DNA from: Euryarchaeota archaeon UBA171
GTDB lineage: Archaea; Thermoplasmatota; Poseidoniia; Poseidoniales; Thalassarchaeaceae
Length of the DNA: 64,000 nucleotides
Direction: 5' to 3'
Assembly (NCBI GenBank): GCA_002497295.1
Contig: DANO01000025.1
Location: forward strand, 71,098 to 135,097
Shown here: positions 7,091 to 61,987 of the stretch, in pieces
Numbering within the stretch: the stretch's first letter is position 1
Layout of the letters: every line of letters starts with the position of its first letter
Translations under genes and position numbers: made by a program
The notes under the pieces: generated by a model
Databases searched by the model: none
Told to the model about the DNA's origin: nothing
The model's input: the letters and a program-made list of their open reading frames with translations, nothing else

Positions 7091-9922
7091 TCAAATCATT
7101 CTTCGAATATGCGTCGCAACTAAGTTTGAATCTGGGAGCATATAATCTTCGAGAGGAGGCGAAAATGGTACAGGAGTATCCAAAGCGCCAATCACTACAG
7201 GAGGCCCCTCTAGGGACCAAAATGATCCTTCAACTATGGATGAACAAACAGTATGTCCGAAACCGCCGGTCCACTGAGCCTCTTGAAGAACGATTAGTCG
7301 ACCTGTTCGATTAACAGACTCAATACATGTAGCCGAATCAAGAGGATGAAGAGTTCTAAGATCTATTACTTCTACTTCTATGCCCTCTCGAGAGACCATC
7401 TTCGAAGCACTCATTGCAACATGCACCATAGCCCCCCAGGTCACTACCGTGATATCCCTCCCGGGGCGAGTCACACGCGCTTTACCTATCGACGTAGTGC
7501 CCGTCATGATTCGTTGTTCAGCCATCGAAGTGTCCACTGATTGACTGATGCGGTCTCCCCATCCTGTAAGCCCGCCCCTCAACCCATACAGGCCTATATG
7601 CTCCAGAAGTATGAATGGATCATCGGTAGCAGCCCCTTCTAGCAGGAGGTCATAGGCATCTTGGGGATTCGACGGGAATCCAATCAAGAGGCCGGGATCG
7701 TTTAGCAACCAAGATTCAATCATATTTGCATGGAACGGGCCACTTCTTGTTTTCCCGCCAAGCGGTATTCTAACAGTTATCGGCACATCGGCACCCCATC
7801 TCCATCGGAGCTGTGCTGCATTATTCACGAGAGCATTCATTGCTAATGCAGCGAATCCTCCAAACTGTATTTCTGCTACTGGTCGCAACCCCCCCATTGC
7901 TGCACCTGTGGCGCTGTTGATGATGATGGATTCTGAAAGAGGCATGTCGAGTAGCTTATCCCCATGTCCTTTGGCTTTGAGAGCCAGATTGAGGCCGAAT
8001 GCGCCAGCAACCTCCATGTCCTCTCCCATGAATATTGATAGATCCCCAGATCTCTCCGCGATTTCAACCATGGCGCTTTGTATTGCTTTGCTGAACGTCC
8101 ATGCATTAGATGCATCACTGAACTCCATTGGAGTCAATATTGGAGAAGCAGATTTCTCAGAGCCTTTCTCTAGGATTTCCAATTGTTGGTCGTGAGTTCT
8201 TGCATTACTCATCATAGTCACGCCGGTTATCACTGATTCAGGATCAGGCCAAGGCATTGCCTCTACCTTGTAGCGTGCCTCCTCGCAAAGAGCCTCCTCC
8301 TCTTGATAAATCAATTTAACATCTCTAGCGCCAGCTCCCATCTTCCTGATCAAAACCTCGTGATTCGATATCGGCTCTTTATCAGCCCAGTAATTCAGTA
8401 GATCACGATCAACATATCCTGGAGGATTACCGCTCTCAGCGCCCAGATACAGGTCGTCATGATGATGCGCGTGTCCGCACCCACGCATGGTCTCTACATG
8501 GATTATGGACCCGCCTCCTCCTGAAATTGCAAGCTCACGTGCGACAGCAACCGACGCGTAATACGCAGATGGATCAGACCCGTCTATCGTCCAAGCAGGC
8601 AAACCTACAGCAACGCCCTTGTCTCCAAACGTCTCTGCTCCAGATTGCCGCCCCGAGAATGTATCGAGAGCAATTTGATTATTTTGAATAATATAGCAGA
8701 TTGGAAGGCCTCTGACTCCTGCCAGATTTATCGCTTCCCAGAATTCCCCGCTGCTGCTGCACCCTTCCCCTACGGGCGCGAGATGGAATCGCCTTATTCC
8801 CAATCGTTTCGATGCAAGAGCTACTCCCGTAATCGTTGCACTTGCAATCGGTAAAGGTGCAGTGGGCGGAAGTATTCCTTTACTCCAATCTCCTATGTGA
8901 AGGTCCCTGCCCCCGCCTCCAATGTGTCCTCCATTCATTTTAGACTCTGATTTACCCATTTGTGCAGCCATTATCGATAGAGGCGTCTGGCCAAGTGCCA
9001 AGGCAAGTCCGAGATCCCTAATCATAGGGGCAGCAAAATCTGTACCCTTCTCGATAGCCATTCCACAGGCAGCAACAGCTTCCTGCCAAGTTGACCTGAA
9101 CCCCTTTCCGCCAAACCTCGCTCCTTCCGGGGTCTCCACACCTTTTACGAACAAGTCTTTCAGATGCTCATCGAGTATCTTCGTTCTGACCATCCATCGA
9201 TGCCACTCAAGGCGCTGTTCGAGAGTCACTGCAGCCGAATAGGCCAATCTTCTCAGAGTTAGCCGAATATCCAATACGAATCTAGATCTACGCCTTGATA
9301 GATACGTTCTGCCATCCCTCCGTGGCATGATCTCCATTTCTAGAACGTCTCCGACTTCAAGATCATGCAGACGCTCATCGAAAGCCTCGTACAAGCACTT
9401 CGAAAACGATTCCGACCAGTTGTGGAAATCATCTCCATTCATCGATTTGACGGGCAAGTTAGATTCCAGAACAGATGCAACCAAGTTTAGATGTCCATCC
9501 CACCTCTCAGCAACAAATCTTAGGATTTCTGACCGAATAACTTCCCAGTGTAGCGGCTTAGAAAATTTCAGAGGAGCTTCCGGCTGCCAATCCACGCCCC
9601 ATATCGGCGGCAGATCGGATTGCTCCTTCACACCGCTCTCCACCGTATTCTTCAATGCATGATTTCTGCTATCAGCCTCTCGAATTAGTGCCTCTTCGCC
9701 GACCCCAGGTCTCATCCAAACCCTTGCATCAGAGGTCCTACCTTGTCCGCTGCCTGAACGCTCGATAAGCACTCGAGTCCGCTCCGAGCATTTTGAGCAT
9801 CGCCTGTCCAGTGCTTTGAGGCCCCTTTTCGAAGAAAACCATGGTTGATGATGCATACATGCAGGACACCTCCATATCCCTGATGATGGTGTGCTCATGA
9901 TACCTGCAGAACGATAAAGCAC
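7091..9922 (-). CDS. Fused 2-oxoacid dehydrogenase E1 component (alpha+beta in one chain, branched-chain type) with N-terminal Cys4 zinc-ribbon extension
   Basis: The alpha part carries a ThDP motif, VGEGCSSSGEFWEAINLAGVRGLPICYIIQNNQIA. The beta part reads FMGEDMEVAGAFGLN...DMPLSESIIINSATGAAMGGLRPVAEIQFGGFA. The first roughly 210 aa are unrelated and contain CPAC-x19-CSKC. It has a GTG start at 9922, with an alternative ATG at 9898. Confidence 0.85.
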   Translation of the reverse strand: MLYRSAGIMSTPSSGIWRCPACMHHQPWFSSKRGLKALDRRCSKCSERTRVLIERSGSGQGRTSDARVWMRPGVGEEALIREADSRNHALKNTVESGVKEQSDLPPIWGVDWQPEAPLKFSKPLHWEVIRSEILRFVAERWDGHLNLVASVLESNLPVKSMNGDDFHNWSESFSKCLYEAFDERLHDLEVGDVLEMEIMPRRDGRTYLSRRRSRFVLDIRLTLRRLAYSAAVTLEQRLEWHRWMVRTKILDEHLKDLFVKGVETPEGARFGGKGFRSTWQEAVAACGMAIEKGTDFAAPMIRDLGLALALGQTPLSIMAAQMGKSESKMNGGHIGGGGRDLHIGDWSKGILPPTAPLPIASATITGVALASKRLGIRRFHLAPVGEGCSSSGEFWEAINLAGVRGLPICYIIQNNQIALDTFSGRQSGAETFGDKGVAVGLPAWTIDGSDPSAYYASVAVARELAISGGGGSIIHVETMRGCGHAHHHDDLYLGAESGNPPGYVDRDLLNYWADKEPISNHEVLIRKMGAGARDVKLIYQEEEALCEEARYKVEAMPWPDPESVITGVTMMSNARTHDQQLEILEKGSEKSASPILTPMEFSDASNAWTFSKAIQSAMVEIAERSGDLSIFMGEDMEVAGAFGLNLALKAKGHGDKLLDMPLSESIIINSATGAAMGGLRPVAEIQFGGFAALAMNALVNNAAQLRWRWGADVPITVRIPLGGKTRSGPFHANMIESWLLNDPGLLIGFPSNPQDAYDLLLEGAATDDPFILLEHIGLYGLRGGLTGWGDRISQSVDTSMAEQRIMTGTTSIGKARVTRPGRDITVVTWGAMVHVAMSASKMVSREGIEVEVIDLRTLHPLDSATCIESVNRTGRLIVLQEAQWTGGFGHTVCSSIVEGSFWSLEGPPVVIGALDTPVPFSPPLEDYMLPDSNLVATHIRRMI

Positions 9923-9948
9923 ATCATATATTCGATGAATTGATTATA

Positions 9949-9955
9949 ATATAAA
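9949..9955 (-). promoter_or_regulatory. Putative TATA box (TTTATAT on minus strand) for the fused E1 gene
   Basis: It lies 27-33 nt upstream of the GTG at 9922, the spacing expected for a leaderless or short-leader archaeal transcript. Many other TATA-like words occur nearby, so the assignment is weak. Confidence 0.3.
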
Positions 9956-10079
9956 CATAAATTATAATTTTTAAAAATGATATTTTTACATTAAAAAAAA
10001 GTATTACTGAATTTAAATTTACAACATATTATAAATTAAATTATTTTTATATTACATAAATTTTAAAGATATTAGTCGG

Positions 10080-10087
10080 AAATAAAA
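10080..10087 (-). terminator. Putative archaeal oligo-T terminator (TTTTATTT on minus strand)
   Basis: It lies 18-25 nt after the stop of the E1-like/rhodanese gene, at the end of a long co-directional gene string. A T8 run follows at 9993-10000. Confidence 0.3.
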
Positions 10088-10104
10088 CATGAATTAATTT
10101 ATTA

Positions 10105-11199
10105 CTAATATCTTGGAATATTTTGATCAATCTCTCTAGACCAGAGGTCTATCCCCCCTACTAGATTCGATACCCTGGAATCGAATGCTGGCAAACTTCC
10201 AAGATATCTCACTACACTTGCCGATCTAACTCCTGAGTGACAATACACAACAATCGGCACACTGAGTGGTAATTCATCGATTCTGCTGGGCACGTTGAAG
10301 TGCTCAATTCTGAGATCCGTCTCATCTATGGAGGCTATCGACTCCTCATCAGCCCTCCTCACATCGAGAAGGAAGAAATCAACGCCATCATCAATCATTG
10401 ACTTCAGTTGAATAGGCTGAATGGAAGGTGAAATCGAATTATTGGACTTCAATTGCGTAACATCTTCATTCTCTTCTTTCCCTGGGAAACCAATTTGTAA
10501 AATCCTAGTTTTCATCGTCATTGCATCCATAATCAACAATCGACCAGAAAGAGTCTCACCTATGCCTAGCAAGATCTTAATCGCTTCTGCTGCTTGTATT
10601 GACCCAAGGATACCCGTAATTGCCCCAAGAACGCCTGCATCAGCACAACTAGGGGCCAACTCTGGCGGCGGCGGATCGGGAAATAGATCTCTGTAATTAG
10701 GCCCATTTTCGTGATTGAAAACTGAAACTTGCCCCTCAAATCTAAGAACGCTGGCAAAAACCCAGGGTATGCCGAGGCTTTTGCAAGCATCGTTTATGGA
10801 ATAACGAGCCTCGAAACTATCGGTACCATCGATAACTACGTCTGAACCTCCAAGGAGACGTTCAGCGTTTTCAGGACAAACTCGTTCTCCAATCGGCTCA
10901 ATTACGATTTTACTGTCAAGTGCGCTCAGGCGCCTTCGGGCAGATTCGACCTTACTCTCTCCTACCTCGGTTTCAGAATGTATGACCTGTCTTTGGAGAT
11001 TAGACTCATCTACAACGTCATCGTCTATCACTCTAATTTTCCCTATCCCTGCGGCAGCAAGATACAGCAATGCGGGAGATCCGAGACCGCCAGCTCCAAC
11101 AATAGTGACTACGGAATTGGCTAGCCTAATCTGCCCGCCTAACCCTACTTCGTCAAGTACAATATGCCTGCTGTACCTTTCCAGACGTTCTTTTTCCAT
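10105..11199 (-). CDS. MoeB/ThiF/UbaA-type E1-like adenylyltransferase with C-terminal rhodanese domain
   Basis: RYSRHIVLDEVGLGGQIRLANSVVTIVGAGGLGSPALLYLAAAGIG is the nucleotide-binding fold. It is followed by SCADAGVLG, and the C-terminal rhodanese domain has the active-site loop VVYCHSGVRS. Confidence 0.85.
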   Translation of the reverse strand: MEKERLERYSRHIVLDEVGLGGQIRLANSVVTIVGAGGLGSPALLYLAAAGIGKIRVIDDDVVDESNLQRQVIHSETEVGESKVESARRRLSALDSKIVIEPIGERVCPENAERLLGGSDVVIDGTDSFEARYSINDACKSLGIPWVFASVLRFEGQVSVFNHENGPNYRDLFPDPPPPELAPSCADAGVLGAITGILGSIQAAEAIKILLGIGETLSGRLLIMDAMTMKTRILQIGFPGKEENEDVTQLKSNNSISPSIQPIQLKSMIDDGVDFFLLDVRRADEESIASIDETDLRIEHFNVPSRIDELPLSVPIVVYCHSGVRSASVVRYLGSLPAFDSRVSNLVGGIDLWSREIDQNIPRY

Positions 11200-11203
11200 A
11201 ATT

Positions 11204-11605
11204 TCACAACCCCGGAGATATCAATCGTATGGATGAAACAATGAAGCTGAATCTCCCCCATGCGACTGTCATTTTACGCGATTTTGTAGGAGATAGGCTC
11301 ACTCCAAACAATATGAACAATAGCCGTTGAATGAAATTTTGTTGAAGTGCATTTTCGGGTTTTTCTATGTCTAAAAACCACCTTTCTAAATCTGTGAGGA
11401 TACAGTATCCGTCACGAGTGAACCAGAGAATTTCAGTTACGGCGTAGACGATAATCACTGCCCATAAGATCGAATCCCATGGGGAAAGCCAACCTACTGC
11501 AACAAGAAATGTCACTGCAATATGTGTCAGATAGAGGCAATATGCCGCTGCTCTGTTAACGAAAGCAACATCTCCTCGCCCCTGATCAAAAACGCCTCGT
11601 TCCAT
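11204..11605 (-). CDS. Small membrane protein, DUF2784-like
   Basis: It has three to four hydrophobic segments. DGYCILTDLERWF resembles the conserved C-P-L-T-x-L-E-x-W motif of DUF2784 as I remember it. It is packed between trxB and the E1-like gene with 9-nt and 4-nt gaps. Confidence 0.5.
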   Translation of the reverse strand: MERGVFDQGRGDVAFVNRAAAYCLYLTHIAVTFLVAVGWLSPWDSILWAVIIVYAVTEILWFTRDGYCILTDLERWFLDIEKPENALQQNFIQRLLFILFGVSLSPTKSRKMTVAWGRFSFIVSSIRLISPGL

Positions 11606-51281: not shown

Positions 51282-51368
51282 GGCTGCACGACACACTACA
51301 GTCACATGAAGCCTCGTACCGCCCCATCGCAACCCTATGTTCATCTCCTCCCTGCCTCATTGGGGTGC

Positions 51369-53129
51369 ATGGAGGTACCCGGCGAGCTCGCTGCCATGCT
51401 TGCTGGAGAGCATGGTCCGACACGTCAAAAGGCGGCACGATTAGTGACCGACCTCGCCCTTGCCGCTGGAGCAAATCAATTCACTAAGGCTTCTAATGCG
51501 CATGTTTCCGGCGTCTCTGTGATTACTGGCGGAGTCGGTCTTAGACGGTTTCTTGCAGATTTAGCTTCAGACGGAGATGCCAAGGTCGCTATACCCACTA
51601 CTCTGAACTCAGCCGGATGCGACTCTTCTAAGATTAATCAGATGGGAATTGATTATCCTGATTTCATGATCCTGCAAGCCGAGATAGTGACCTCCTACTG
51701 GGAGATGGGCATCCAAACAACTCTGTCATGCACGCCTTACGATCGCGATTCAGAATCAAGTAGCGGGATAGGTAGCTGGGCAGAATCGAACGCTGTGTGC
51801 TTTGCGAATACGTACACAGATTTAGCCACAAACAGGGAATCGGGTCTTTCAGCACTTTCCACAGCCTTGACCGGATGGGCCCCACTTTGGGGGCTCCACC
51901 TCCCGTCTAACAGGAAGCCGAATATCCTGGTGAACGTTGAATGCAACCTTACCGACTCCACAGACTTCTCAGTTCTAGGAGATTGGATAGGCCGGCAAAT
52001 CGAGTCAGACTGGACACTCCCATTCGGGCCGATGCCCAGGATACAGGGCTTGCCCGTGAGTGCTACATTTGAGATGAAGAAGGCACTCACCGCAGCAGCA
52101 GCAAATTTCGGTTGCCCGATGCTTTGGGCAGACGGCCTAACGCGGGACGCTCCAGATTCCGAATATCAGGGCTCGGTCACTTTCACACAAGAAGATCTTG
52201 ACGCGTGCTATGGCCGGCTCGCCCCGACCGGCCGAGTAGACCTAGTTGTCATTGGATGCCCGCAGGCAAGCATAGGGGAAGCACGTGCAGTGGCGGCAGA
52301 GGTACGAGCAAGAATGGAGTTGGGTGAAAAGATACCCGATCATCGTCTATGGCTATTCACATCGGGCACGGTGCACGATCAACTTCTCGCAGATGGCACA
52401 TCAGATATTCTGGAAGAAGGGGGCGTGCTTCTTCTAAGGGACACTTGTCCCGAAGTTACTCCGTACAACAGGAATCGGTACAACTACCTGCTCACCAATT
52501 CCATGAAAGCCGAACATTATCTCACTAGTGGTTTGAATTCAATGCCTACGAGCGTTGCTAGAATACCTGAGTGTGTAGCGCATGCATTCGATCCAGATTT
52601 ATCCTCCGGGCCTCCTCCCTCACTTGAAAAATCTCATGCAAAAGAAATGATTTCTACTAAAACATGGAAGAGTGGAGACATTTTACTGAGAGGATCCGGA
52701 TTACCAAGCCAGCATTCATTCGAGGTGACTGCTAGAGCGCTAGTCACAGACATACCGATCACATACCTCGGATATGTGGATCCAGAAACAGGTATTGTAA
52801 CTGAGCCTGGACACCCCCTTCATGGACAGGCTGTAGGCGGGAAGGTTCTCGTCTACCCGAGAGGTTCAGGATCCACTGTAGCCCCTTATGTGCTGATGGG
52901 TCTCTCTTATGGGGGAAAGGCGCCTGCAGCAATCTTGAACAGGGACGTTTGTCCTCTTACCCTTCCTGCCGCTTCTATACAGGCAATACCATATGGCCAT
53001 GGCTTCGATACCGATCCTACTATTGAGATAAATTCTGGAGACCTCGTGAAAATGACTCTCAACGATGGCATCGTCTCAGTCACTATATTGGATCGCTCAC
53101 CATCTCCGGATAAGGCGGAATCAGTATGA
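51369..53129 (+). CDS. Aconitase X (AcnX) family dehydratase, fused large (DUF521) + small swivel (DUF126) domains
   Basis: The N-terminal part reads AHVSGVSVITGG...AIPTTLNSAGCD and LSCTPY. The C-terminal part reads ITYLGYVDPETGIV...HPLHGQAVGGKVLVYPRGSGSTVAPYVL...GKAPAAIL (DUF126 pattern). I prefer the ATG at 51369 (MEVPGELA). Confidence 0.75.
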   Translation: MEVPGELAAMLAGEHGPTRQKAARLVTDLALAAGANQFTKASNAHVSGVSVITGGVGLRRFLADLASDGDAKVAIPTTLNSAGCDSSKINQMGIDYPDFMILQAEIVTSYWEMGIQTTLSCTPYDRDSESSSGIGSWAESNAVCFANTYTDLATNRESGLSALSTALTGWAPLWGLHLPSNRKPNILVNVECNLTDSTDFSVLGDWIGRQIESDWTLPFGPMPRIQGLPVSATFEMKKALTAAAANFGCPMLWADGLTRDAPDSEYQGSVTFTQEDLDACYGRLAPTGRVDLVVIGCPQASIGEARAVAAEVRARMELGEKIPDHRLWLFTSGTVHDQLLADGTSDILEEGGVLLLRDTCPEVTPYNRNRYNYLLTNSMKAEHYLTSGLNSMPTSVARIPECVAHAFDPDLSSGPPPSLEKSHAKEMISTKTWKSGDILLRGSGLPSQHSFEVTARALVTDIPITYLGYVDPETGIVTEPGHPLHGQAVGGKVLVYPRGSGSTVAPYVLMGLSYGGKAPAAILNRDVCPLTLPAASIQAIPYGHGFDTDPTIEINSGDLVKMTLNDGIVSVTILDRSPSPDKAESV

Positions 53130-55243
53130 TCGAGGAAAGCCCTCCTTGCAGGCCGCAGGATTTTGGAAAGTTCGAGATTGTAGACAGGGATGGAGCTGCT
53201 AGAATAGGGAAAATCCATACTAATCATGGGATATTGACCACACCCACTCTTTTGCCAGTTGTAAATCCGAACATACTGACCGTTGAACCAAGAGAGATGT
53301 GGGACAAATTCGGTTTCAGAGCATTGATTACAAACTCGTATGTGATATGGAAGCATGAGAAACTTCGTGAAAAGGCGCTGGAAGAGGGCGTACATGAACT
53401 CCTGAATTTCCCTGGGGTGATTATGACCGACTCGGGCACCTTCCAGTCATATGTCTACGGGGATGTCGAGGTTGGAATCGAGGAGATTGTTGAATTTCAG
53501 CGAGATATCGGAGTGGACATAGGAACCATGCTTGACGTCTTCGGCCGTCCCGACATGACCAGGGAAGAGATAGAGGCCGCCGTAGACACAACTGCGAATC
53601 GTGCCAATGCATCTCTTTCATCGGCAGGAGAAAAATTACTTCTGAATGGACCCATCCAAGGAGGGACACATCAGGATTTGAGGGCGGAATCATCTTCCAG
53701 AATGGCTGCTTCAGAAGTGGGCGGGAGGGGATTCTCAGTCCACCCAATAGGAGGCATTGTCCCGCTCATGGAAACACAGAGATATTCCGATCTTTTCTCG
53801 GTGATACTCTCTTCCATGTCAGCACTACCTTCAGATCGCCCAGTCCATATCTTTGGCTGCGGACACCCCCTGCTATTCCCACTTTGCATTGCTCTCGGAG
53901 CAGATCTTTTCGACTCAGCAGCATATGCCCTCTTCGCCAAAGATGGGAGGATACTATCCGAGGAGGGGACCCACAGGATAGATTCTGCTGTGGAGTGGCC
54001 TGTCTCGTCAAGATATCTTGAGGATTATACGCCAAGGGAGGTTAGGGAGATGGACAAGAAATCCAGAACTGCACTTCTCGCGAGACATAATCTTGAGGTC
54101 ACACAGAGGGAACTCTCCCGCTGCAGGGAGGCCATAAGGAACGGGTCAATATGGAATCTCGCTGAACGTAGAAGTCATGCATCTCCTCATCTCAGGAAGG
54201 CGTTTAAGCAGGTACTCGAAGCCATCCAAGATGGGCCGGAAATACCATCTGGACGCCGAATGGCATCAATTATTTCTTCAACCGATCCAGTTCGGCCCTC
54301 CTCTGAACCATTCAGCGAAGACGTCTCCAAAAGACCACACATCATCCATGCTGGTACGTTACTAGAAAATAGGTGGAAATTACCAGGATCATGGTGGGAC
54401 GGGTCGACTGGACCCCCATCGAGTGTTGTGATATTGCATGGAAGCAATCCTCCATGGAGAACTGCATACGGGAGTGTAGTAGCAGAGATCCTTCAAGATG
54501 AACCTAAGACTGCAATATTCGTAAAAACACCTCTTGGACTGATACCCTACTCTTTGGAGGATTTATCGCCATGGTGCCGCATCGAGGGCAATGATGATTC
54601 AATACCCGGCGATCCTAATCTAAAAGAATCTTACATCCGATTAGATCGCCTGAGCTTGGATAAAATCCCTCTCGAATACAGAATTGCATCTGATTCGGAT
54701 ATCATGATGAAGAACGAGATTAGAGCATGGTTGGATAGGTGTTCCACGGTGGACAGACTCGCAGTCCTTTGTGGTGTGAAACCTTCTGACGGGTGCCGAA
54801 TAACAGACGGAATGAATGTCAGACATTCCAAGACGGGGAGGCCCGTAAACGTGCTGTCCAAAGATCGTCACTTATTCTCGCCCCGATTGAATGATGGGGG
54901 GATATCCCTTGCATTGGAAGGTGCCAAGGCGATTCACTCACTAATGGACATCCAACCGCCCCTCGGATTTTCCAACCATCAGGAAAATCATCTCCAGACT
55001 CATCCCGGTATTGCAAGAGTCACAATCCACTCTGATGCCATACCATTCGTGGGGGCTGGCAGGAATGTTATGCATGGGTTTGTAATCGGAGCGGACGAAT
55101 GGATTACTGTTGGGCAGCCATGCTTGGTCGTAGATGAAAATGGAACTCTCGTAGCACATGGGAACTCTAATTCAACCATGCATGAAATGTCGGTACTAAG
55201 AAAGGGCGTTGCAGTAAGAATCAGAGAGGGTGCTCTGCCTTGA
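53126..55243 (+). CDS. tgtA: Archaeosine tRNA-guanine transglycosylase (ArcTGT) with C-terminal PUA domain
   Basis: It carries FEIVDRDGAARIGKIHTNHGILTTPTLLPVVNP, MTDSGTFQ (catalytic Asp), HIFGCGHP...GADLFDSAAY (nucleophile Asp) and a C-terminal PUA-like domain, VVDENGTLVAHGNS...GVAVRIREG. Its start overlaps the AcnX stop by 4 nt. Confidence 0.85.
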   Translation: MIEESPPCRPQDFGKFEIVDRDGAARIGKIHTNHGILTTPTLLPVVNPNILTVEPREMWDKFGFRALITNSYVIWKHEKLREKALEEGVHELLNFPGVIMTDSGTFQSYVYGDVEVGIEEIVEFQRDIGVDIGTMLDVFGRPDMTREEIEAAVDTTANRANASLSSAGEKLLLNGPIQGGTHQDLRAESSSRMAASEVGGRGFSVHPIGGIVPLMETQRYSDLFSVILSSMSALPSDRPVHIFGCGHPLLFPLCIALGADLFDSAAYALFAKDGRILSEEGTHRIDSAVEWPVSSRYLEDYTPREVREMDKKSRTALLARHNLEVTQRELSRCREAIRNGSIWNLAERRSHASPHLRKAFKQVLEAIQDGPEIPSGRRMASIISSTDPVRPSSEPFSEDVSKRPHIIHAGTLLENRWKLPGSWWDGSTGPPSSVVILHGSNPPWRTAYGSVVAEILQDEPKTAIFVKTPLGLIPYSLEDLSPWCRIEGNDDSIPGDPNLKESYIRLDRLSLDKIPLEYRIASDSDIMMKNEIRAWLDRCSTVDRLAVLCGVKPSDGCRITDGMNVRHSKTGRPVNVLSKDRHLFSPRLNDGGISLALEGAKAIHSLMDIQPPLGFSNHQENHLQTHPGIARVTIHSDAIPFVGAGRNVMHGFVIGADEWITVGQPCLVVDENGTLVAHGNSNSTMHEMSVLRKGVAVRIREGALP

Positions 55244-55316: not shown

Positions 55317-56282
55317 GTGAGTGATTCAGTTATCCGGATACGCGGACTCAGGAAGATGTATGGCCCACACGTCGCCCTTGACGGCGTTGATTTGGATATA
55401 GGTGCCGGCGGAGTAGGGATACTGGGGCCAAATGGTTCCGGAAAATCGACTTTGTTCAAGTGTATATTGGGGCTGATAAGAATCACTGAGGGGGGCGGCA
55501 CGGTTCTTGGAAAGGACATCGTGACCATGGGCTCCGAGATACGCTCTAGAATAGGCTACATGGCGGAATACGATTCTCTAGATCCAGCCCTAACTGCCGT
55601 CGACCATGTGAGATATGCCGGAGAACTCCTTGGAATGCGCCCAGATCAAGCAACACAGAGGGCACATGAAGTGCTACAGTACGTGGGTTTGGAAGATCAG
55701 AGGTATCGTACTATCGACAGCTTCTCGACAGGCATGAGACAGGCCACAAAACTGGCATGTGCAATTGTCCATGATCCCGAGATACTTTTCTGTGACGAAC
55801 CCACCAATGGCTTGGATACGTCTGCTAGGCAATTCATGCTTGACACGCTTAGAAGAACCATCTCTGACGGAGGAGGTACCGTGATTATGACTAGTCATGT
55901 CATGGAGGATATACAGGGTGTGTGTGAGCGAGTAGTAATGCTTTCTGGAGGGAAAGTCGTCCTTGAAGGCCGTATAGACGAACTCGCACGCCAAATTACT
56001 AGAGAAATCGAAATATCCGTCTGGGGCGGAGCCACAAAGCTCGAGGAATGGCTGCTGACAAAAGGACATCGTGTTAGGAGAATGGGACGCGTAATGAGGG
56101 TTGAAATGAAGGGTGATGAAACAATCCCAGCAATTCTTCTTGGGGCGTCTGAGACCGATGCCCAAGTTAGAGTATTGAAGGAGTATGAGCCAGATTTGGA
56201 AGATATCTTCCTCCTAATCATGCAACGGCTGGGGAAAGAGGCAAAGGGCGCTTCTGCCATTATCGGGGGCCGTGAAGAATGA
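55317..56282 (+). CDS. ABC transporter ATP-binding protein (ABC-2 exporter type), subunit 1
   Basis: It has Walker A GPNGSGKST, signature FSTGMRQ, Walker B ILFCDEPTNGLD and H-loop TSHVM. It has a GTG start with a GGAGGA SD 7-12 nt upstream. Confidence 0.9.
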   Translation: MSDSVIRIRGLRKMYGPHVALDGVDLDIGAGGVGILGPNGSGKSTLFKCILGLIRITEGGGTVLGKDIVTMGSEIRSRIGYMAEYDSLDPALTAVDHVRYAGELLGMRPDQATQRAHEVLQYVGLEDQRYRTIDSFSTGMRQATKLACAIVHDPEILFCDEPTNGLDTSARQFMLDTLRRTISDGGGTVIMTSHVMEDIQGVCERVVMLSGGKVVLEGRIDELARQITREIEISVWGGATKLEEWLLTKGHRVRRMGRVMRVEMKGDETIPAILLGASETDAQVRVLKEYEPDLEDIFLLIMQRLGKEAKGASAIIGGREE

Positions 56283-57286
56283 CTGAATCTGATAGCACCG
56301 TAGCTCTCGGTGAAGCCAGGATAGAGGCGGCATACGGCTCAGGCGATGGCGATGACGATTCATCTGCAACCGTGGCAAGGCCTATGCAAGGCAGGATATT
56401 CGAGCAGATATACCGTCCATGGAATGGACCTCTCGGTCCGCGGTGGGTCAGAAACTATGCAATCTACAGACATCACGTATACGGTATAATATCAGGCACA
56501 GGCCATCGTCGCTATCATCCATTCGTAAGGCTCTTGCTCCTCGTTGTTATTTTGGGATCGATGACCCCGATACTCATGTTATTACTTTCCACCATGGTGA
56601 GTGACGATGCAACAGGATTTCTGAATAGGATGTGGGGCGTGAATAGATACAATTTGTGGGGGAACGTGCTCGGTTATTTTCCACGCAATCTTTGCATGTG
56701 GCCATTATTGACGGCTCTTGTAGTCGGTGGTTTGGTATCCGACGACAGGAGAAATGGGACTAGTGCGATTTACTTCTCGAGGCCTGTTTCACGGCTTGAT
56801 TACGCAGCTATGAAATGGCTAAGCGCTGCCTCCGTCCTCGCTATAGTGATCCTTCTAACATACATGATGTACTATTCCGCGGCTGTCGTCTTCAAAGGAG
56901 AGGGTTGGTCGTTCATAGCCGACACGATACCAATTTTCATGGGAGGATTATTGGCCGGAATCTTCCTCGTATTTACTTACACAACGATAGGAATCGCACT
57001 TTCAAGCATAAGCACGAGTCGATTCACAGCATCAATTTCATTCCTGGGATACATCCTCGGCTCCAAACTCGTTGCATGGCTAATAGAAATACAGTTCGAT
57101 ACCACTTACGTGTACATGGTCAGCCCATATGACTGTCTAGCCCATGTTGGACAGTGGTTGGTCGGCCTCCCATACAACTACGATCACCCTCTCGCACTAT
57201 CGGCCATATCATTGGTAGCGATTAATGCGGCTTCATTGGCAATATTCGCAAGCCGCGTGGCATCACTGGAGGTGACTAGGGAATGA
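56279..57286 (+). CDS. ABC-2-type permease-like membrane protein, subunit 1
   Basis: It has six hydrophobic segments and the string IYFSRPVSRLDY typical of ABC-2 family permeases. It overlaps both neighbours by 4 nt. Confidence 0.65.
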   Translation: MTESDSTVALGEARIEAAYGSGDGDDDSSATVARPMQGRIFEQIYRPWNGPLGPRWVRNYAIYRHHVYGIISGTGHRRYHPFVRLLLLVVILGSMTPILMLLLSTMVSDDATGFLNRMWGVNRYNLWGNVLGYFPRNLCMWPLLTALVVGGLVSDDRRNGTSAIYFSRPVSRLDYAAMKWLSAASVLAIVILLTYMMYYSAAVVFKGEGWSFIADTIPIFMGGLLAGIFLVFTYTTIGIALSSISTSRFTASISFLGYILGSKLVAWLIEIQFDTTYVYMVSPYDCLAHVGQWLVGLPYNYDHPLALSAISLVAINAASLAIFASRVASLEVTRE

Positions 57287-58218
57287 CAAAACCACCTGCT
57301 GTGTCTCTAGATCATGTGTCGAAGTGGTACGGCCAGGTCATAGGCATCAATGACATATCAATTGCAATTGATGGGGGTGTAACGGGCATCCTGGGTATGA
57401 ACGGTGCAGGGAAATCAACTCTCTTCAAACTCTTGATGGGCAGAATCCGGCCGAGTAAAGGATCTGTACGACTCTTTGGAACTAATCCTTGGGAATCACC
57501 TGCTCCATATCGAAGAATTGGCTATGTTAGCGAATCAGAGAGGATGTATGATTGGATGACTTCGATTGACTTCGTATCCACTCTTGCCAGACTCCACGGC
57601 ATGACCAGGTCAGAAGCCGAATTTCGAGCTGAACAGGCTCTTTCCTTTGTCGATCTTGGAGACGTTCTGAACAAGGAGGTCGGCAAGTACAGCAAGGGTA
57701 TGCGCCAACGAGTAAAAATCGCAGCAGCGCTCGTCCACGACCCTGACTTGCTCATCCTAGACGAGCCTCTACATGGCTGCGACCCCTTAGCACGAACTAG
57801 CATAATGAACGTGATCCGGGAAATAGGTTCACGGGGAAAGACAGTATTGCTATCGAGCCACATACTGGAAGAAATCGAAAGAATAACCGAGCAGATAGTC
57901 ATCCTTCATGCAGGTAGGCTCGTCGCCCTTGGAAATCTACATGCAATTAGAGCAATGCTTGACAAGCATCCTCATCGAATACTGATACATTGTGAAGATG
58001 CAAGAGCCCTCGCATCAAGCTTCATCGACAAACAACCTGTTTATGGCGTCAGATTCCTAGACAATGAGCGACTCGAGATAATGACAAAAGATCTCTCTGA
58101 GGCGCATTCTATTTTACCAGCGCTAATCCTTGAGTCAGGAGTCCCGATACACTCTATTGAGAATCCAGATGATAATTTGGAATCTCTTCTCGGCTATCTT
58201 GTAGGTGATTCAGGATGA
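57283..58218 (+). CDS. ABC transporter ATP-binding protein (ABC-2 exporter type), subunit 2
   Basis: It has Walker A GMNGAGKST, signature YSKGMRQR, Walker B LLILDEPLHGCD and H-loop SSHIL. Confidence 0.9.
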   Translation: MTKPPAVSLDHVSKWYGQVIGINDISIAIDGGVTGILGMNGAGKSTLFKLLMGRIRPSKGSVRLFGTNPWESPAPYRRIGYVSESERMYDWMTSIDFVSTLARLHGMTRSEAEFRAEQALSFVDLGDVLNKEVGKYSKGMRQRVKIAAALVHDPDLLILDEPLHGCDPLARTSIMNVIREIGSRGKTVLLSSHILEEIERITEQIVILHAGRLVALGNLHAIRAMLDKHPHRILIHCEDARALASSFIDKQPVYGVRFLDNERLEIMTKDLSEAHSILPALILESGVPIHSIENPDDNLESLLGYLVGDSG

Positions 58219-59846
58219 GCAGGGGGGATCGGATAGACTCCGAAGGAAGACGCCTAGCTACTACTGTGTGGACAGCTCTTGACAGAAAAGCTGGAGCGAT
58301 AATCGAACTCACAGTCAGGCAACTCAAGAACAAGACCTCCACATGGACTGTAATGGGCGTCTCTGTCCTATTGCTAACACTCCTCTCAGCGTTCTATATC
58401 GACTCGGTAAGGGAAGGCTTCGAATCCATCGATAATGATGGTGACTCTGTTGATTTCGATGGCGATGGCTATCCTCTTGGACAGGAGATGAAGTACGGGT
58501 CCAGCGATTACGATGAAAGAGAATACCCTGGCGCTGCTATTTTCATACCCGAGAATCAAATTAACTACTGGGGCGTTAGAACACATTCTGGAAACTACAC
58601 CTGGCAAGCCTCTGGCCCATCCAAATTCACAGGAAGTTGGGAAAATATCTCCACTAATTATGCTGAATATGGTGATGAATGCCCTGAAATAATCGGAGAG
58701 GATCTGGCGAATACCCCCTACGGATATAGCTCATTTGCATGCACTCTTGCCGACAACTCCGTGTATGTCCAATTCTTGAGATTCGATGGAAACGGAACTC
58801 TGGCAGTCGCCGAAGGCTGGAACGCAGAGTATGGTAGAACAACCGAGAGCTACTATGTCGCACCAGATCCGCCAAGCGCGTATATCGATGAAGACGGACT
58901 GGACTGGGACTCTGAAAACCCCTCTCAAAGCCAGGGATTCGATGATGACGGAGACTGCACTCAAGAGGGATACTATCTCCCTACGGGAAGTCAGAATGAC
59001 GATGATAACAGGAATGGCGTGGCCTGCGACGTGCAGTGGATAAGAGGTCCGGATGGCTCTGTGCTGCAGATAAATCCGGATTATCTGGTCGATGAGGATC
59101 CTGTTGACTCAGAACTTCTGGGGGAATCTTCCCACAGGTCGTTCATAATCGCGACTGGGAAAATCGCATTCGCCATGATTATCGGTATATTCATGCCTCT
59201 ATTCTTGGCGCTCGGACTTATCCGTGATGAGAGTGAGAATGGAACTTTACATTATTTACTTTCAAAACCAATTCACCGTGGAGAATTCATAGTATACAGA
59301 CTCTCTGGGTATCTCATATTCACCGGCGGTTTCGTACTTGCGATGTCTCTCCTTATGGCTGCTGTTACTGTAACTCTCGGGCCGGATGGCAATAGGTTGG
59401 GAGACATCAACGTCTGGTTCGGGATAGGCGTAGTAACTGTGTTATCTCTTGCAGCATATGGCTCAATCTTCAATGCAATGGGTCTCGCATCCCCGAAATA
59501 TGGTGTTTATTTTGCGCTGGTGTACGGCGTATACGAATTCGCAATGGCCGTCATGACATTATTCGGAGCAGATCTAGTCCCGATAATCTCAGTTTCTCAT
59601 TGGTCTCTTCAAATGATAGATGCGATTGTAATTCTAGCTTGGCCGGATACCATCATGCTCGCCCAGATGGCCACTGCATTCAATCTTGAAAGTGGTTTAG
59701 CATTCTTCTGGAACCCTCCTGTACACACTTTCGGAACAGGCTCATCAGCCCTAGCAATGAGCCTTAGCGTAGTCGTACTTCTCGCATTCATAACACTCCC
59801 AGTACTCATCGGTCAATCCATATTCAATAGGAGGGAGATTGATTGA
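58215..59846 (+). CDS. ABC-2-type permease-like membrane protein with about 270-aa Asp-rich extracytoplasmic domain, subunit 2
   Basis: An N-terminal TM is followed by an ectodomain with Ca-binding-like loops (DNDGDSVDFDGDGYP, DEDGLDWD, DDDGDC, DDDNRNGVACD). Then come HYLLSKPIHRGEFIVYR and five more hydrophobic segments. Confidence 0.65.
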   Translation: MSRGDRIDSEGRRLATTVWTALDRKAGAIIELTVRQLKNKTSTWTVMGVSVLLLTLLSAFYIDSVREGFESIDNDGDSVDFDGDGYPLGQEMKYGSSDYDEREYPGAAIFIPENQINYWGVRTHSGNYTWQASGPSKFTGSWENISTNYAEYGDECPEIIGEDLANTPYGYSSFACTLADNSVYVQFLRFDGNGTLAVAEGWNAEYGRTTESYYVAPDPPSAYIDEDGLDWDSENPSQSQGFDDDGDCTQEGYYLPTGSQNDDDNRNGVACDVQWIRGPDGSVLQINPDYLVDEDPVDSELLGESSHRSFIIATGKIAFAMIIGIFMPLFLALGLIRDESENGTLHYLLSKPIHRGEFIVYRLSGYLIFTGGFVLAMSLLMAAVTVTLGPDGNRLGDINVWFGIGVVTVLSLAAYGSIFNAMGLASPKYGVYFALVYGVYEFAMAVMTLFGADLVPIISVSHWSLQMIDAIVILAWPDTIMLAQMATAFNLESGLAFFWNPPVHTFGTGSSALAMSLSVVVLLAFITLPVLIGQSIFNRREID

Positions 59847-61036
59847 ATGATCAGATGAAAAGATTCGGAGGGGATCTTTCTACCATGTGGCGATTCGACA
59901 TACTCCCGCCTATCAAGAGACTCTCGTGGTGGTGGTGGTGGTTCATCCTAGTTCTACCAGACTCGAAACACCCTGAGAGATCCCGGCAACTCATGGTTCT
60001 TTGGTCAACCAAGGAGACTCCCTCGATTAGGGTGAACAACCATTGGTGGAAGCCCGGGGCCAGGATGGCAATTGATGAGCATGATGGCCACGTTCTGCCG
60101 GGAATGGTGTGTGCATGGTGGTATGATGGGGATGTGATGCACGAGCCAGCTCGTATGACCGAATGCCGAATTGCAGCATTAACAGACACACATCCTGATT
60201 GGCCAGGAGAAGGGATGGGCATAGGCGGCGGAGCAGTGGTTCCCCTCACAAGCGATGATCTGTCCTTCGGCATGCTGCCCGACCTAAGCAAGATGTGGCT
60301 TTCATTCAAGCCAGATCATGAGTCAAACCCCGACCTTCCAAAATCCTTCGAGGCAGAATTGACTCCTTGGTGGGAACGCCCAAGCAGCGCAACATATGCG
60401 AATAACGTCTACGCAATGGGGATGGGGTATGATATCCTCAGAATACATGCTATGAAAGCCAAGGTATTGATTGACGGAGAGGCTGTAGAAGGTTCAGCAT
60501 ACTTTCAGAAGGTGACTGTGCAGGCTCCTAGCGTTCCCTGGTTCTGGGGTTTCCTCCATTTTGATGATGGGACATACCTGGATTGGTTCTTACCTCACAT
60601 CTCAGGGTCGATGTCAAAGAAAGACTCAGCACCCTGGTCCAAAAGGGATTCAATAAGATGGCCAAGTAATGCCAGGGGCCTGATGCACGATCGATCCAGA
60701 GGCACTACTGAGAAACTCGAGCAAGGATCGATTGAACTCATTCGTCCAGATGAGCCAAATGCATTGAGAGATTCAGATGGTTCGCTACTTCCAAGATTCA
60801 GGATAAGACTCCATAACGACAGAGTGAATGTGGAGCTCCAAGTAAGAGCCACTTCAAGGGCGCACTGGACTTTCGATCAACCCACTCGAGCAGGCCTAAC
60901 AAGTCATCTCACATACAACGAGTACCCTCTCGAAGTAGAGCATATCCTCCTATCTGACGAGGCCGGCGACAGGAATATTTCAGACTTCAAGTGGATACGC
61001 GGCAATGCAGAGCATGCCTGGGGAATCCTAAATTGA
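59843..61036 (+). CDS. Hypothetical Trp-rich protein, weak resemblance to tocopherol cyclase / CrtC / AttH lipocalin-like beta-barrel families
   Basis: It is 397 aa and carries SWWWWWFILVLPDS...LMVLWST near the N-terminus and GSAYFQKVTVQAPSVPWFWGFLHFDDG in the middle. These recall the W-rich entry motif and the G-x-aY-x-EK-x-W-G...W-x-W motif of those families. This is recalled from memory and unverified. Its start overlaps the preceding permease stop by 4 nt. Confidence 0.55.
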   Translation: MNDQMKRFGGDLSTMWRFDILPPIKRLSWWWWWFILVLPDSKHPERSRQLMVLWSTKETPSIRVNNHWWKPGARMAIDEHDGHVLPGMVCAWWYDGDVMHEPARMTECRIAALTDTHPDWPGEGMGIGGGAVVPLTSDDLSFGMLPDLSKMWLSFKPDHESNPDLPKSFEAELTPWWERPSSATYANNVYAMGMGYDILRIHAMKAKVLIDGEAVEGSAYFQKVTVQAPSVPWFWGFLHFDDGTYLDWFLPHISGSMSKKDSAPWSKRDSIRWPSNARGLMHDRSRGTTEKLEQGSIELIRPDEPNALRDSDGSLLPRFRIRLHNDRVNVELQVRATSRAHWTFDQPTRAGLTSHLTYNEYPLEVEHILLSDEAGDRNISDFKWIRGNAEHAWGILN

Positions 61037-61057: not shown

Positions 61058-61987
61058 ATGGCCAATACCGGGGACCAACTCAATAGTGAGGCTACTAGGA
61101 ACAAAATACCTACGTTGACAGACTCCGAGCAAATTCTATGGATAGGCCACCCTACAGCACGTAGCATGTATGGGAGATATGTTCTAGGGGGCTTGATGGG
61201 AGGGGTGTACTTATTTTTCTGGTGGGCGAATATGTCTGAAAGACCACAGGGGGAAGGGCAGATGGCATTTGTAATCAAGACGCTTCATCTTGGCGCAGAC
61301 CTCTCAGGTGTCTTCGGACTCTTGCTGGTTATGCTAATACTTGCTAAAATAATCCATTTTTCCAATGGCCCTGCCTCCGGAAAGTGGACCATCCTGTGGG
61401 TCGTCTTTTCAGCCGTATTGCCAGCTCTCTGGGTCTCCATGGAAATCGGTATCAACGTTGCTGGCTTTTTTGGGGACGGAGATTTCCCCCTGCCTAGCTG
61501 GGGTAATGGCTACTATTTCCTTCTGGGCCCCATGTTTGCAGGGGTTCTGATTGCATTCACGGCGATTTACCAAAGAGCATTCACATATGCAATAACTGAT
61601 CGCCGGATACACCTGATTAAGCGATTCATGTATCTCGATGCGAATAGCCAGAGCATCGGATACGACAGAATCGAGAATCTCATCGTCCAGACGTCAATCA
61701 CTAGCAGATTGCTTAGATTCGGAACGATACAGATACTCACCGCTTCAGGCCTGAATATTGCATCCGACTCGACTTCTGTAGCAGCAGGAGTATCGAATGA
61801 CATTCCAAATGACGAGCCTCCAGGGGGGATACGGAAACTATTCTCGGGGATTGGATTATTCCTCTCGTTCAAAAGAACTAGGCCGAAGGCGGTGAATGAA
61901 CCTGAGTCCTGTATATACGGAATTCATGCTCCTGAGAAGATACATCTTCTAATTAATCAGACATCCGATGCATTCCGGATGTCGTAA
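61058..61987 (+). CDS. Membrane protein with bacterial-type PH (bPH_2/YdbT-like) domain
   Basis: It has SEQILWIGHPTARSMYGRY, then several TM helices, then ITDRRIHLIKRFMYLDANSQSIGYDRIENLIVQTSITSRLLRFGTIQILTAS, the bPH_2 pattern. Confidence 0.65.
   Translation: MANTGDQLNSEATRNKIPTLTDSEQILWIGHPTARSMYGRYVLGGLMGGVYLFFWWANMSERPQGEGQMAFVIKTLHLGADLSGVFGLLLVMLILAKIIHFSNGPASGKWTILWVVFSAVLPALWVSMEIGINVAGFFGDGDFPLPSWGNGYYFLLGPMFAGVLIAFTAIYQRAFTYAITDRRIHLIKRFMYLDANSQSIGYDRIENLIVQTSITSRLLRFGTIQILTASGLNIASDSTSVAAGVSNDIPNDEPPGGIRKLFSGIGLFLSFKRTRPKAVNEPESCIYGIHAPEKIHLLINQTSDAFRMS

Follow-up and report, generated by a model that had tools for sequence, protein, structure and literature searches.

Two distinct ATPase–permease pairs of the ABC-2 class, an acidic calcium-loop ectodomain and an AttH/CrtC-like protein form a conserved operon of Poseidoniales

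Several described systems resemble parts of the locus reported here. The pmtABCD operon of Staphylococcus aureus alternates ATP-binding cassette (ABC) ATPases with ABC-2 permeases, and its products are two separate transporters that act on amphipathic peptides (PMC9974410). NosDFY works by an ATP-driven conformational change of its periplasmic partner (PMC13685413). In archaea, an AttH-like hydratase makes hydroxylated glycerol dialkyl glycerol tetraether (hydroxy-GDGT) lipids (bioRxiv 10.1101/2025.10.20.683597). Our subject is a run of five genes in a 64,000-nucleotide stretch (the window) of contig DANO01000025.1 of Euryarchaeota archaeon UBA171, a member of the order Poseidoniales (Marine Group II; family Thalassarchaeaceae, Marine Group IIb), in which two ATPases and two permeases alternate and are followed by a protein with an AttH/CrtC-hydratase-like predicted fold. 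Poseidoniales, still uncultivated, rank among the most abundant archaea of ocean surface waters; the literature on their ABC transporters covers amino-acid uptake systems only. The five genes are a real, conserved and lineage-specific operon whose parts are of known kinds and whose combination is new. The reading of it that we favor, with a probability of roughly 40%, is an export-type ABC-2 machine for a hydrophobic, membrane-embedded, probably isoprenoid lipid-like compound, where the substrate class, the direction and the part played by the fifth protein are what we infer.

All five genes lie on the forward strand, and their order is that of the open reading frame (ORF) list: a nucleotide-binding ABC ATPase, NBD1 (321 aa, GTG start; 55317–56282), an ABC-2 permease with a transmembrane domain, TMD1 (335 aa; 56279–57286), a second ATPase, NBD2 (311 aa; 57283–58218), a second permease, TMD2 (543 aa; 58215–59846), and the fifth gene, g5 (397 aa; 59843–61036). 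The initial annotation had described 4-nt ATGA overlaps among the four ABC genes that continue into a fifth, and no gene for a substrate-binding protein. The three internal junctions do read ATGA (at 56279, 57283 and 58215); the overlap with g5 at 59843–59846 is present as well and reads TTGA. The g5 start is thus the TTG at 59843, with GGAGGGAG 5–7 nt upstream, and an alternative start is the ATG at 59855. Shine-Dalgarno-like strings (GGAGG or AGGTGA) are found 5–10 nt 5′ of four of the five starts, and since the TTG is one of these, it is a plausible start codon. Overlaps of 4 nt occur at 7 of the 40 same-strand neighbor pairs in the window, and four of those seven are consecutive in this module. 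The tight coupling that had been proposed is borne out by these overlaps and by the short gaps in 11 diverse relatives, where start codons sit at −4 or −1 at nearly all of the three internal ABC junctions and the TMD2-to-g5 gap ranges from −4 to 27 nt; these values lean toward short gaps because the start codon nearest each stop was the one chosen. The gaps flanking the unit in the same relatives are longer (35–125 nt upstream, 21–151 nt downstream). NBD1, TMD1, NBD2, TMD2 and the AttH-fold protein are therefore one five-gene unit. No substrate-binding protein is encoded among the neighbors, again as had been noted. By eye, no clear TATA box stands out in the 73-nt gap upstream of NBD1, a visual look on which we base no claim.

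The unit proved to be a property of the order. TMD2 orthologues are recognizable by sequence in nearly all sampled Poseidoniales genomes, namely 64/65 and 89/90 from the two families (153/155 reported overall), and not outside the order: the sister family of the class yielded only weak TMD2 matches, in 5 of 43 genomes, and the rest of the phylum gave only generic matches to ABC-2 transmembrane regions (E-values 1e-6 to 1e-13). The gene-order check proposed with the initial annotation showed synteny across both families, with the order ArcTGT, NBD1, TMD1, NBD2, TMD2, g5, bPH protein, TPR protein, TruA persisting even where TMD2 has fallen to 38% identity. One genome lacks the bPH gene, and its TPR gene directly follows g5 (G066, locus L026), so bPH is not obligatory. 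The ABC module itself is a single-copy core set of the order, flanked by housekeeping genes.

The two ATPases are typical members of their family, with PF00005 scores of 99 bits for NBD1 and 97 bits for NBD2 against a Pfam cut-off of 25. NBD1 has the Walker A motif GPNGSGKST (55425–55451), the Q-loop GYMAEYD (55554–55574), the signature FSTGMRQ (residues 136–142; 55722–55742), the Walker B/D-loop ILFCDEPTNGLD (55782–55817) and the H-loop TSHVMED (55890–55910); the NBD2 counterparts are GMNGAGKST (57394–57420), GYVSESE (57520–57540), YSKGMRQR (residues 136–143; 57688–57711), LLILDEPLHGCD (57748–57783) and SSHILEE (57853–57873). The Walker A, signature, Walker B (with its Asp-Glu), D-loop and H-loop are present in both proteins and conserved in 11 loci, and because all catalytic motifs are kept, both ATP sites look competent. 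The signatures had been singled out as a departure from LSGGQ; the strings are there, yet they align with the ABCA signatures LSGGMQRK and YSGGNKRK, so by alignment they read as variants of the ABCA/DrrA type with no peculiarity. In the Q-loop, the Gln of ABCA proteins is replaced by Glu in both ATPases at all 11 loci compared, a Glu also found in NatA- and GldA-like ATPases. The two proteins are indeed distinct, being only 37% identical to each other. Their closest solved relatives by sequence are ABCA4, ABCA1, ABCA7 and ABCA3 (E-value about 1e-50), followed in the Protein Data Bank (PDB) by a Thermotoga ABC-2 ATPase, NosF and Rv1218c, with PmtC (6xjh) further down.

Both permeases are of the ABC-2 class (the NosY/ABCG/ABCA type, or “type V”): against a gathering cut-off of 27.2, PF12679 (ABC2_membrane_2) scores 35.1 bits for TMD1 and 38.5 bits for TMD2, it is matched by all 21 TMD2 orthologues aligned, and these two genes are the only ones in the genome that it matches. 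Among 12 aligned orthologues, TMD1 is characterized by a conserved cytoplasmic N-terminus of ~75 residues, a short outer loop, the motif SDDRRNGTSAIYFSRPVSRLDY (56738–56803) and an invariant C-terminus, SLEVTRE; the length of its N-terminus also varies among relatives. Hydropathy gives TMD2 a cytoplasmic N-terminus, a first transmembrane helix (TM1, residues 44–62), an ectodomain (63–316), a second helix (TM2, 317–335) and further helices. Its conserved cytoplasmic motif RDESENGTLHYLLSKPIHRGE is at 59223–59285, and Glu441, in the segment YEFAM (59532–59546), lies in the membrane and is invariant in the 21 orthologues. A further Pro/Ala/Glu-rich stretch of 50–90 cytoplasmic residues extends the N-terminus of TMD2 in several genera of Thalassarchaeaceae (loci L020–L024, e.g., L023:7887-9749). 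The two permeases are as distinct as had been suggested, sharing only an ExxGT..P.R motif after TM2, and judged from their sequences they are almost unrelated, with no recent duplication. Together with the divergence of the ATPases, this implies that the two ATPase–permease pairs are old and distinct.

Profile searches against NCBIfam, a check that the initial annotation had called for, placed none of the four ABC proteins in a curated family of known substrate: no DrrA, GldA/F, NodI, Pmt or Nos model was matched at its cut-off, and since every score fell far below, the set lies outside these families. The models nearest to the ATPases were the DrrA subfamily, GldA, NodI and lantibiotic-protection ATPases, and TMD2 had no NCBIfam match. 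For the DrrA subfamily (TIGR01188), NBD1 and NBD2 scored 212 and 187 bits against a cut-off of 312.45. The Pmt equivalogs were no closer to theirs (PmtA 99 and 113 bits against 350; PmtC 101 against 375), and NodI membership was likewise ruled out by the cut-offs. The likeness to Gld systems that had been drawn does not extend to membership, given GldA (TIGR03522) scores of 163 and 173 bits against 402.6 and a GldF (TIGR03518) score of 33 against 288.5 for TMD1.

These matches, taken with the gene order of pmtABCD, raise the alternative that NBD1 with TMD1 and NBD2 with TMD2 form two homodimeric ABC-2 transporters that rid the membrane of amphipathic peptides, toxins or xenobiotics, by export or clearance, in self-protection. 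PmtC is among the ATPase matches, DrrA, NodI and the lantibiotic-protection ATPases are the top NCBIfam matches, and two permeases so dissimilar suit two transporters. We nevertheless consider this explanation unlikely: the scores stay far from the cut-offs, a single-copy core set kept throughout an order among housekeeping genes would be unusual for immunity or drug efflux, and none of the adjacent genes is a peptide or biosynthetic gene. The pmtABCD precedent bears on assembly as well, because an operon of the same layout encodes two transporters; heteromeric assembly of the four ABC proteins is therefore unproven, and their co-conservation and coupling fit one heterotetramer and two cooperating homodimeric transporters alike.

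The TMD2 ectodomain covers residues 63–316 (58401–59162). It had been described as a large, Asp-rich, extracytoplasmic domain of roughly 270 residues; the description holds, with a measured length of ~254. Its pI is 4.05, with 12.4% Asp, 4% Lys plus Arg, and Cys residues at 156, 176, 248 and 271. An outside location fits this acidity and the Arg/Lys-rich N-terminus of TMD2, and the helix flanks, read from the sequence, obey the positive-inside rule. The quoted Asp strings are present too and fall in conserved columns. The first of two conserved blocks, module A (residues 72–95, IDNDGDSVDFDGDGYPLGQEMKYG; 58428–58499), is a putative TSP3-type calcium-loop repeat with the consensus IDNDGDSxDxDGDGYPxGQExKYG, conserved across Poseidoniales, in which D73, D75 and D77 are invariant in the 21 orthologues. 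Six of the 21 reach the 22-residue model PF18884 (TSP3_bac) in these columns (best E-value 2.4e-6), which supports the calcium-loop motifs that had been proposed, while the copy in the window itself stays below the reporting threshold; the module A region of the profile also matches a TSP3_bac-bearing protein of 1009 aa from the same genome. The second, module B (residues 223–296; 58881–59102), runs YIDEDGLDWD ... GFDDDGDC ... DDDNRNGVACDV ... VDEDP and is again Asp-rich, with 18 positions invariant in the 21 orthologues (I224, E226, D227, D230, D243, D244, G246, D247, C248, D263, N265, C271, D289, V292, D293, E294, D295 and P296), including a Cys248/Cys271 pair that presumably forms a disulfide. 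The isolated ectodomain, module B included, gave no Pfam match even at E-values up to 10. Between the modules, at residues about 106–215 (58530–58859), lies a variable insert with the Cys156/Cys176 pair, modeled by AlphaFold2 as beta-sandwich strands with a predicted local distance difference test score (pLDDT) of 80–89; it is present in 13 of the 21 orthologues and absent from all Poseidoniaceae and some Thalassarchaeaceae. As predicted from the alignments, then, the conserved core of the ectodomain consists of outward-facing, TSP3-type calcium-loop strings placed between TM1 and TM2.

The same kind of repeat recurs in the genome, where TSP3_bac has 19 matches in ORFs of 1000–2100 aa (contigs C3, C7, C16, C18, C25 and C28; loci L037–L045). 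These large ORFs probably encode surface proteins, of which TSP3 would then be a common building block.

An acidic ectodomain could also be a cation sink, as would suit a NatAB-type pump that extrudes Na+ or another small cation. Some TMD2 orthologues do match PF12698 (ABC2_membrane_3), which we take to be the NatB/YhaP family, and Glu441 is an invariant acidic residue in the membrane. We regard such a pump as very improbable, however, since a second, unrelated subunit pair would be superfluous, the Asp strings match structural calcium repeats of the organism’s surface proteins, and neither NatA nor NatB is among the NCBIfam matches listed.

PDB searches with the TMD2 sequence and profile returned nothing meaningful. 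An AlphaFold2 model of TMD2 (pLDDT 73.8) was compared with solved structures. Foldseek ranked NosY first (7o0z/7o0y; probability 1.0, target TM-score 0.59), followed by ABCG25, ABCG5/8, ABCG1 and Rv1217c. The initial annotation had also entertained a mechanotransducing complex, and a closest fold of NosY is consistent with that idea. Such a complex would transport nothing; ATP cycles of the ATPases would act through the permeases to make the ectodomain grip and release an extracytoplasmic partner, which could be a surface or S-layer protein that has such TSP3 repeats as well, or else a metal or cofactor for delivery. In addition to the fold, this explanation gains from NosF being among the best ATPase matches, from the mode of action of NosDFY (PMC13685413), from an ectodomain core that is invariant across Poseidoniales and from the 19 TSP3_bac matches. 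Set against it are the ABCG proteins and Rv1217c, true exporters that match TMD2 almost equally well, an ectodomain that is not a NosD beta-helix, and an operon that lacks a gene for a candidate partner. A Nos function proper is rejected, with NosD (PF05048) and NosL (PF05573) unmatched in the 85%-complete genome and neither encoded in the operon. On balance, we consider a mechanotransducer unlikely.

The g5 protein is Trp-rich and all-beta, with no predicted transmembrane helix, and its AlphaFold2 model has a pLDDT of 88.2 and a predicted TM-score (pTM) of 0.89. Foldseek matched this model, with probability 1.0, to AttH (2ich; E-value 6e-9), kievitone hydratase (7a0q/7a0t) and a pericyclase (7dmo); for 2ich, 7a0q and 7dmo the E-values range from 6e-9 to 2e-6, with TM-scores of 0.46–0.54 for the best chains. 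The predicted fold of g5 is thus that of the AttH/CrtC hydratases. The family has no Pfam model and numbers 320 representatives among 1.84 billion proteins in an exhaustive profile search. Many Trp, His, Asp and Glu residues are invariant within it, for example in YFQKVxVQAPSxPWFWGxLHFxDG and GNAEHxWG, and these suggest that g5 is an enzyme. All Poseidoniales genomes compared have g5 immediately 3′ of TMD2. The g5 match comes in two pieces in two relatives (G018:C24:10256-11778 and G076:C40:33970-35129), which could reflect a frameshift or an assembly error.

The surroundings of the unit offer some further observations. In two Thermoplasmatota outside Poseidoniales, a solitary g5 homologue lies 2–4 kb from an ArcTGT-like gene (L030:3315-4427 with 8486-10678; L032:7743-8888 with 10249-11358), an arrangement hinting at insertion of the ABC genes between ArcTGT and g5 in the ancestor of Poseidoniales. 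Upstream in the window, the AcnX and ArcTGT genes (51306–55243) likewise overlap by 4 nt (53126–53129), and 3′ of g5 lies the gene for a membrane protein with a bPH_2 domain (61058–61987), kept in most relatives.

In the export machine that we favor, ATP binding and hydrolysis by the two ATPases would drive the permeases to extract a hydrophobic compound embedded in the membrane, most plausibly an isoprenoid lipid or lipid-like molecule, and move it to the outer face. There the TMD2 ectodomain, rigidified by calcium, may receive or guide it, and the presumably co-transcribed AttH-fold protein may modify the compound or hand it over on the cytoplasmic face. We counted in favor of export the nearness of the ATPases to the lipid exporters ABCA4, ABCA1, ABCA7 and ABCA3, the resemblance of the TMD2 fold to ABCG and Rv1217c, the conserved catalytic motifs, the resemblance of g5 to AttH and kievitone hydratase, the archaeal precedent of an AttH-like hydratase that makes hydroxy-GDGT lipids, and the lack of a binding protein nearby. 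Several points weigh against this proposal. NosDFY, the machine with the closest permease fold, moves nothing across the membrane (PMC13685413), and the TMD2 model is of only moderate confidence, with its Asp-rich loops below a pLDDT of 60. No sequence link joins g5 to AttH/CrtC, either by Pfam or by profile search against the PDB, and Pfam found no AttH/CrtC match on nine distant g5 homologues or ten remote profile-search hits; the relation is accordingly one of fold. The g5 homologues of other Thermoplasmatota, 28–34% identical, never adjoin ABC genes, so the link between g5 and the ABC genes may be positional, and adjacency alone is weak evidence where the entire ten-gene neighborhood is syntenic. 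Finally, metagenome-assembled genomes of Marine Group II (MG-II) almost all lack tetraether synthase (PMC8941075), which makes a GDGT substrate unlikely.

A more specific version of the export proposal would have the AttH-fold protein hydrate an isoprenoid double bond, either in a membrane lipid or in a compound of carotenoid type, and the ABC-2 machine then carry the product to the cell surface or outer leaflet, with the calcium-stiffened ectodomain as its guide. We consider so particular a Poseidoniales-specific lipid-handling system a long shot; if true, it would be a first handle on the membrane chemistry of Marine Group II archaea. Whatever its function, the operon, specific to the order and near-universal in it, likely acts at the membrane or cell surface, and it is a defined target for heterologous expression with assays of lipid-like transport, of calcium binding by the ectodomain and of lipid hydratase activity of g5.

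Among known systems, NosFY of the NosDFY(L) copper-delivery machine (7o0y, 7o0z, 7znq) is the nearest in permease fold, and NosY is an ABC-2 permease under the same COG label that the Joint Genome Institute (JGI) gives the TMD2 orthologues. Both systems have an extracytoplasmic working part, but NosFY is a homodimeric pair that works with a separate NosD beta-helix and NosL, whereas the Poseidoniales operon has two unlike pairs and an ectodomain of TSP3 type fused to TMD2. The pmtABCD operon (PmtCD, 6xjh) has the identical gene order and related ATPases; Pmt permeases, however, are not known to have a large ectodomain. ABCA1, ABCA3, ABCA4 and ABCA7, eukaryotic lipid exporters, share with our ATPases an S-x-G-M type of signature and with TMD2 both a large ectodomain between TM1 and TM2 and a conserved acidic motif after TM2. 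Each is nonetheless one fused chain with ectodomains, unrelated in sequence, on both halves, in contrast to the four genes and single ectodomain-bearing permease found here. GldAFG and DrrAB enter through the top NCBIfam matches (the DrrA subfamily and GldA for both ATPases, GldF for TMD1), and unlike GldAFG the operon has no recognized GldG-like accessory gene. The AttH/CrtC hydratases, including the archaeal hydroxy-GDGT synthase Hgs, have the two-lobed all-beta fold (2ich, 7a0q) in common with g5, although no Pfam or PDB member matches it at the sequence level; the original AttH gene likewise belongs to an operon with an ABC transporter (attEFGH). Set beside all of these, the ABC parts of the Poseidoniales operon are ordinary, and its value lies in their lineage-specific combination.

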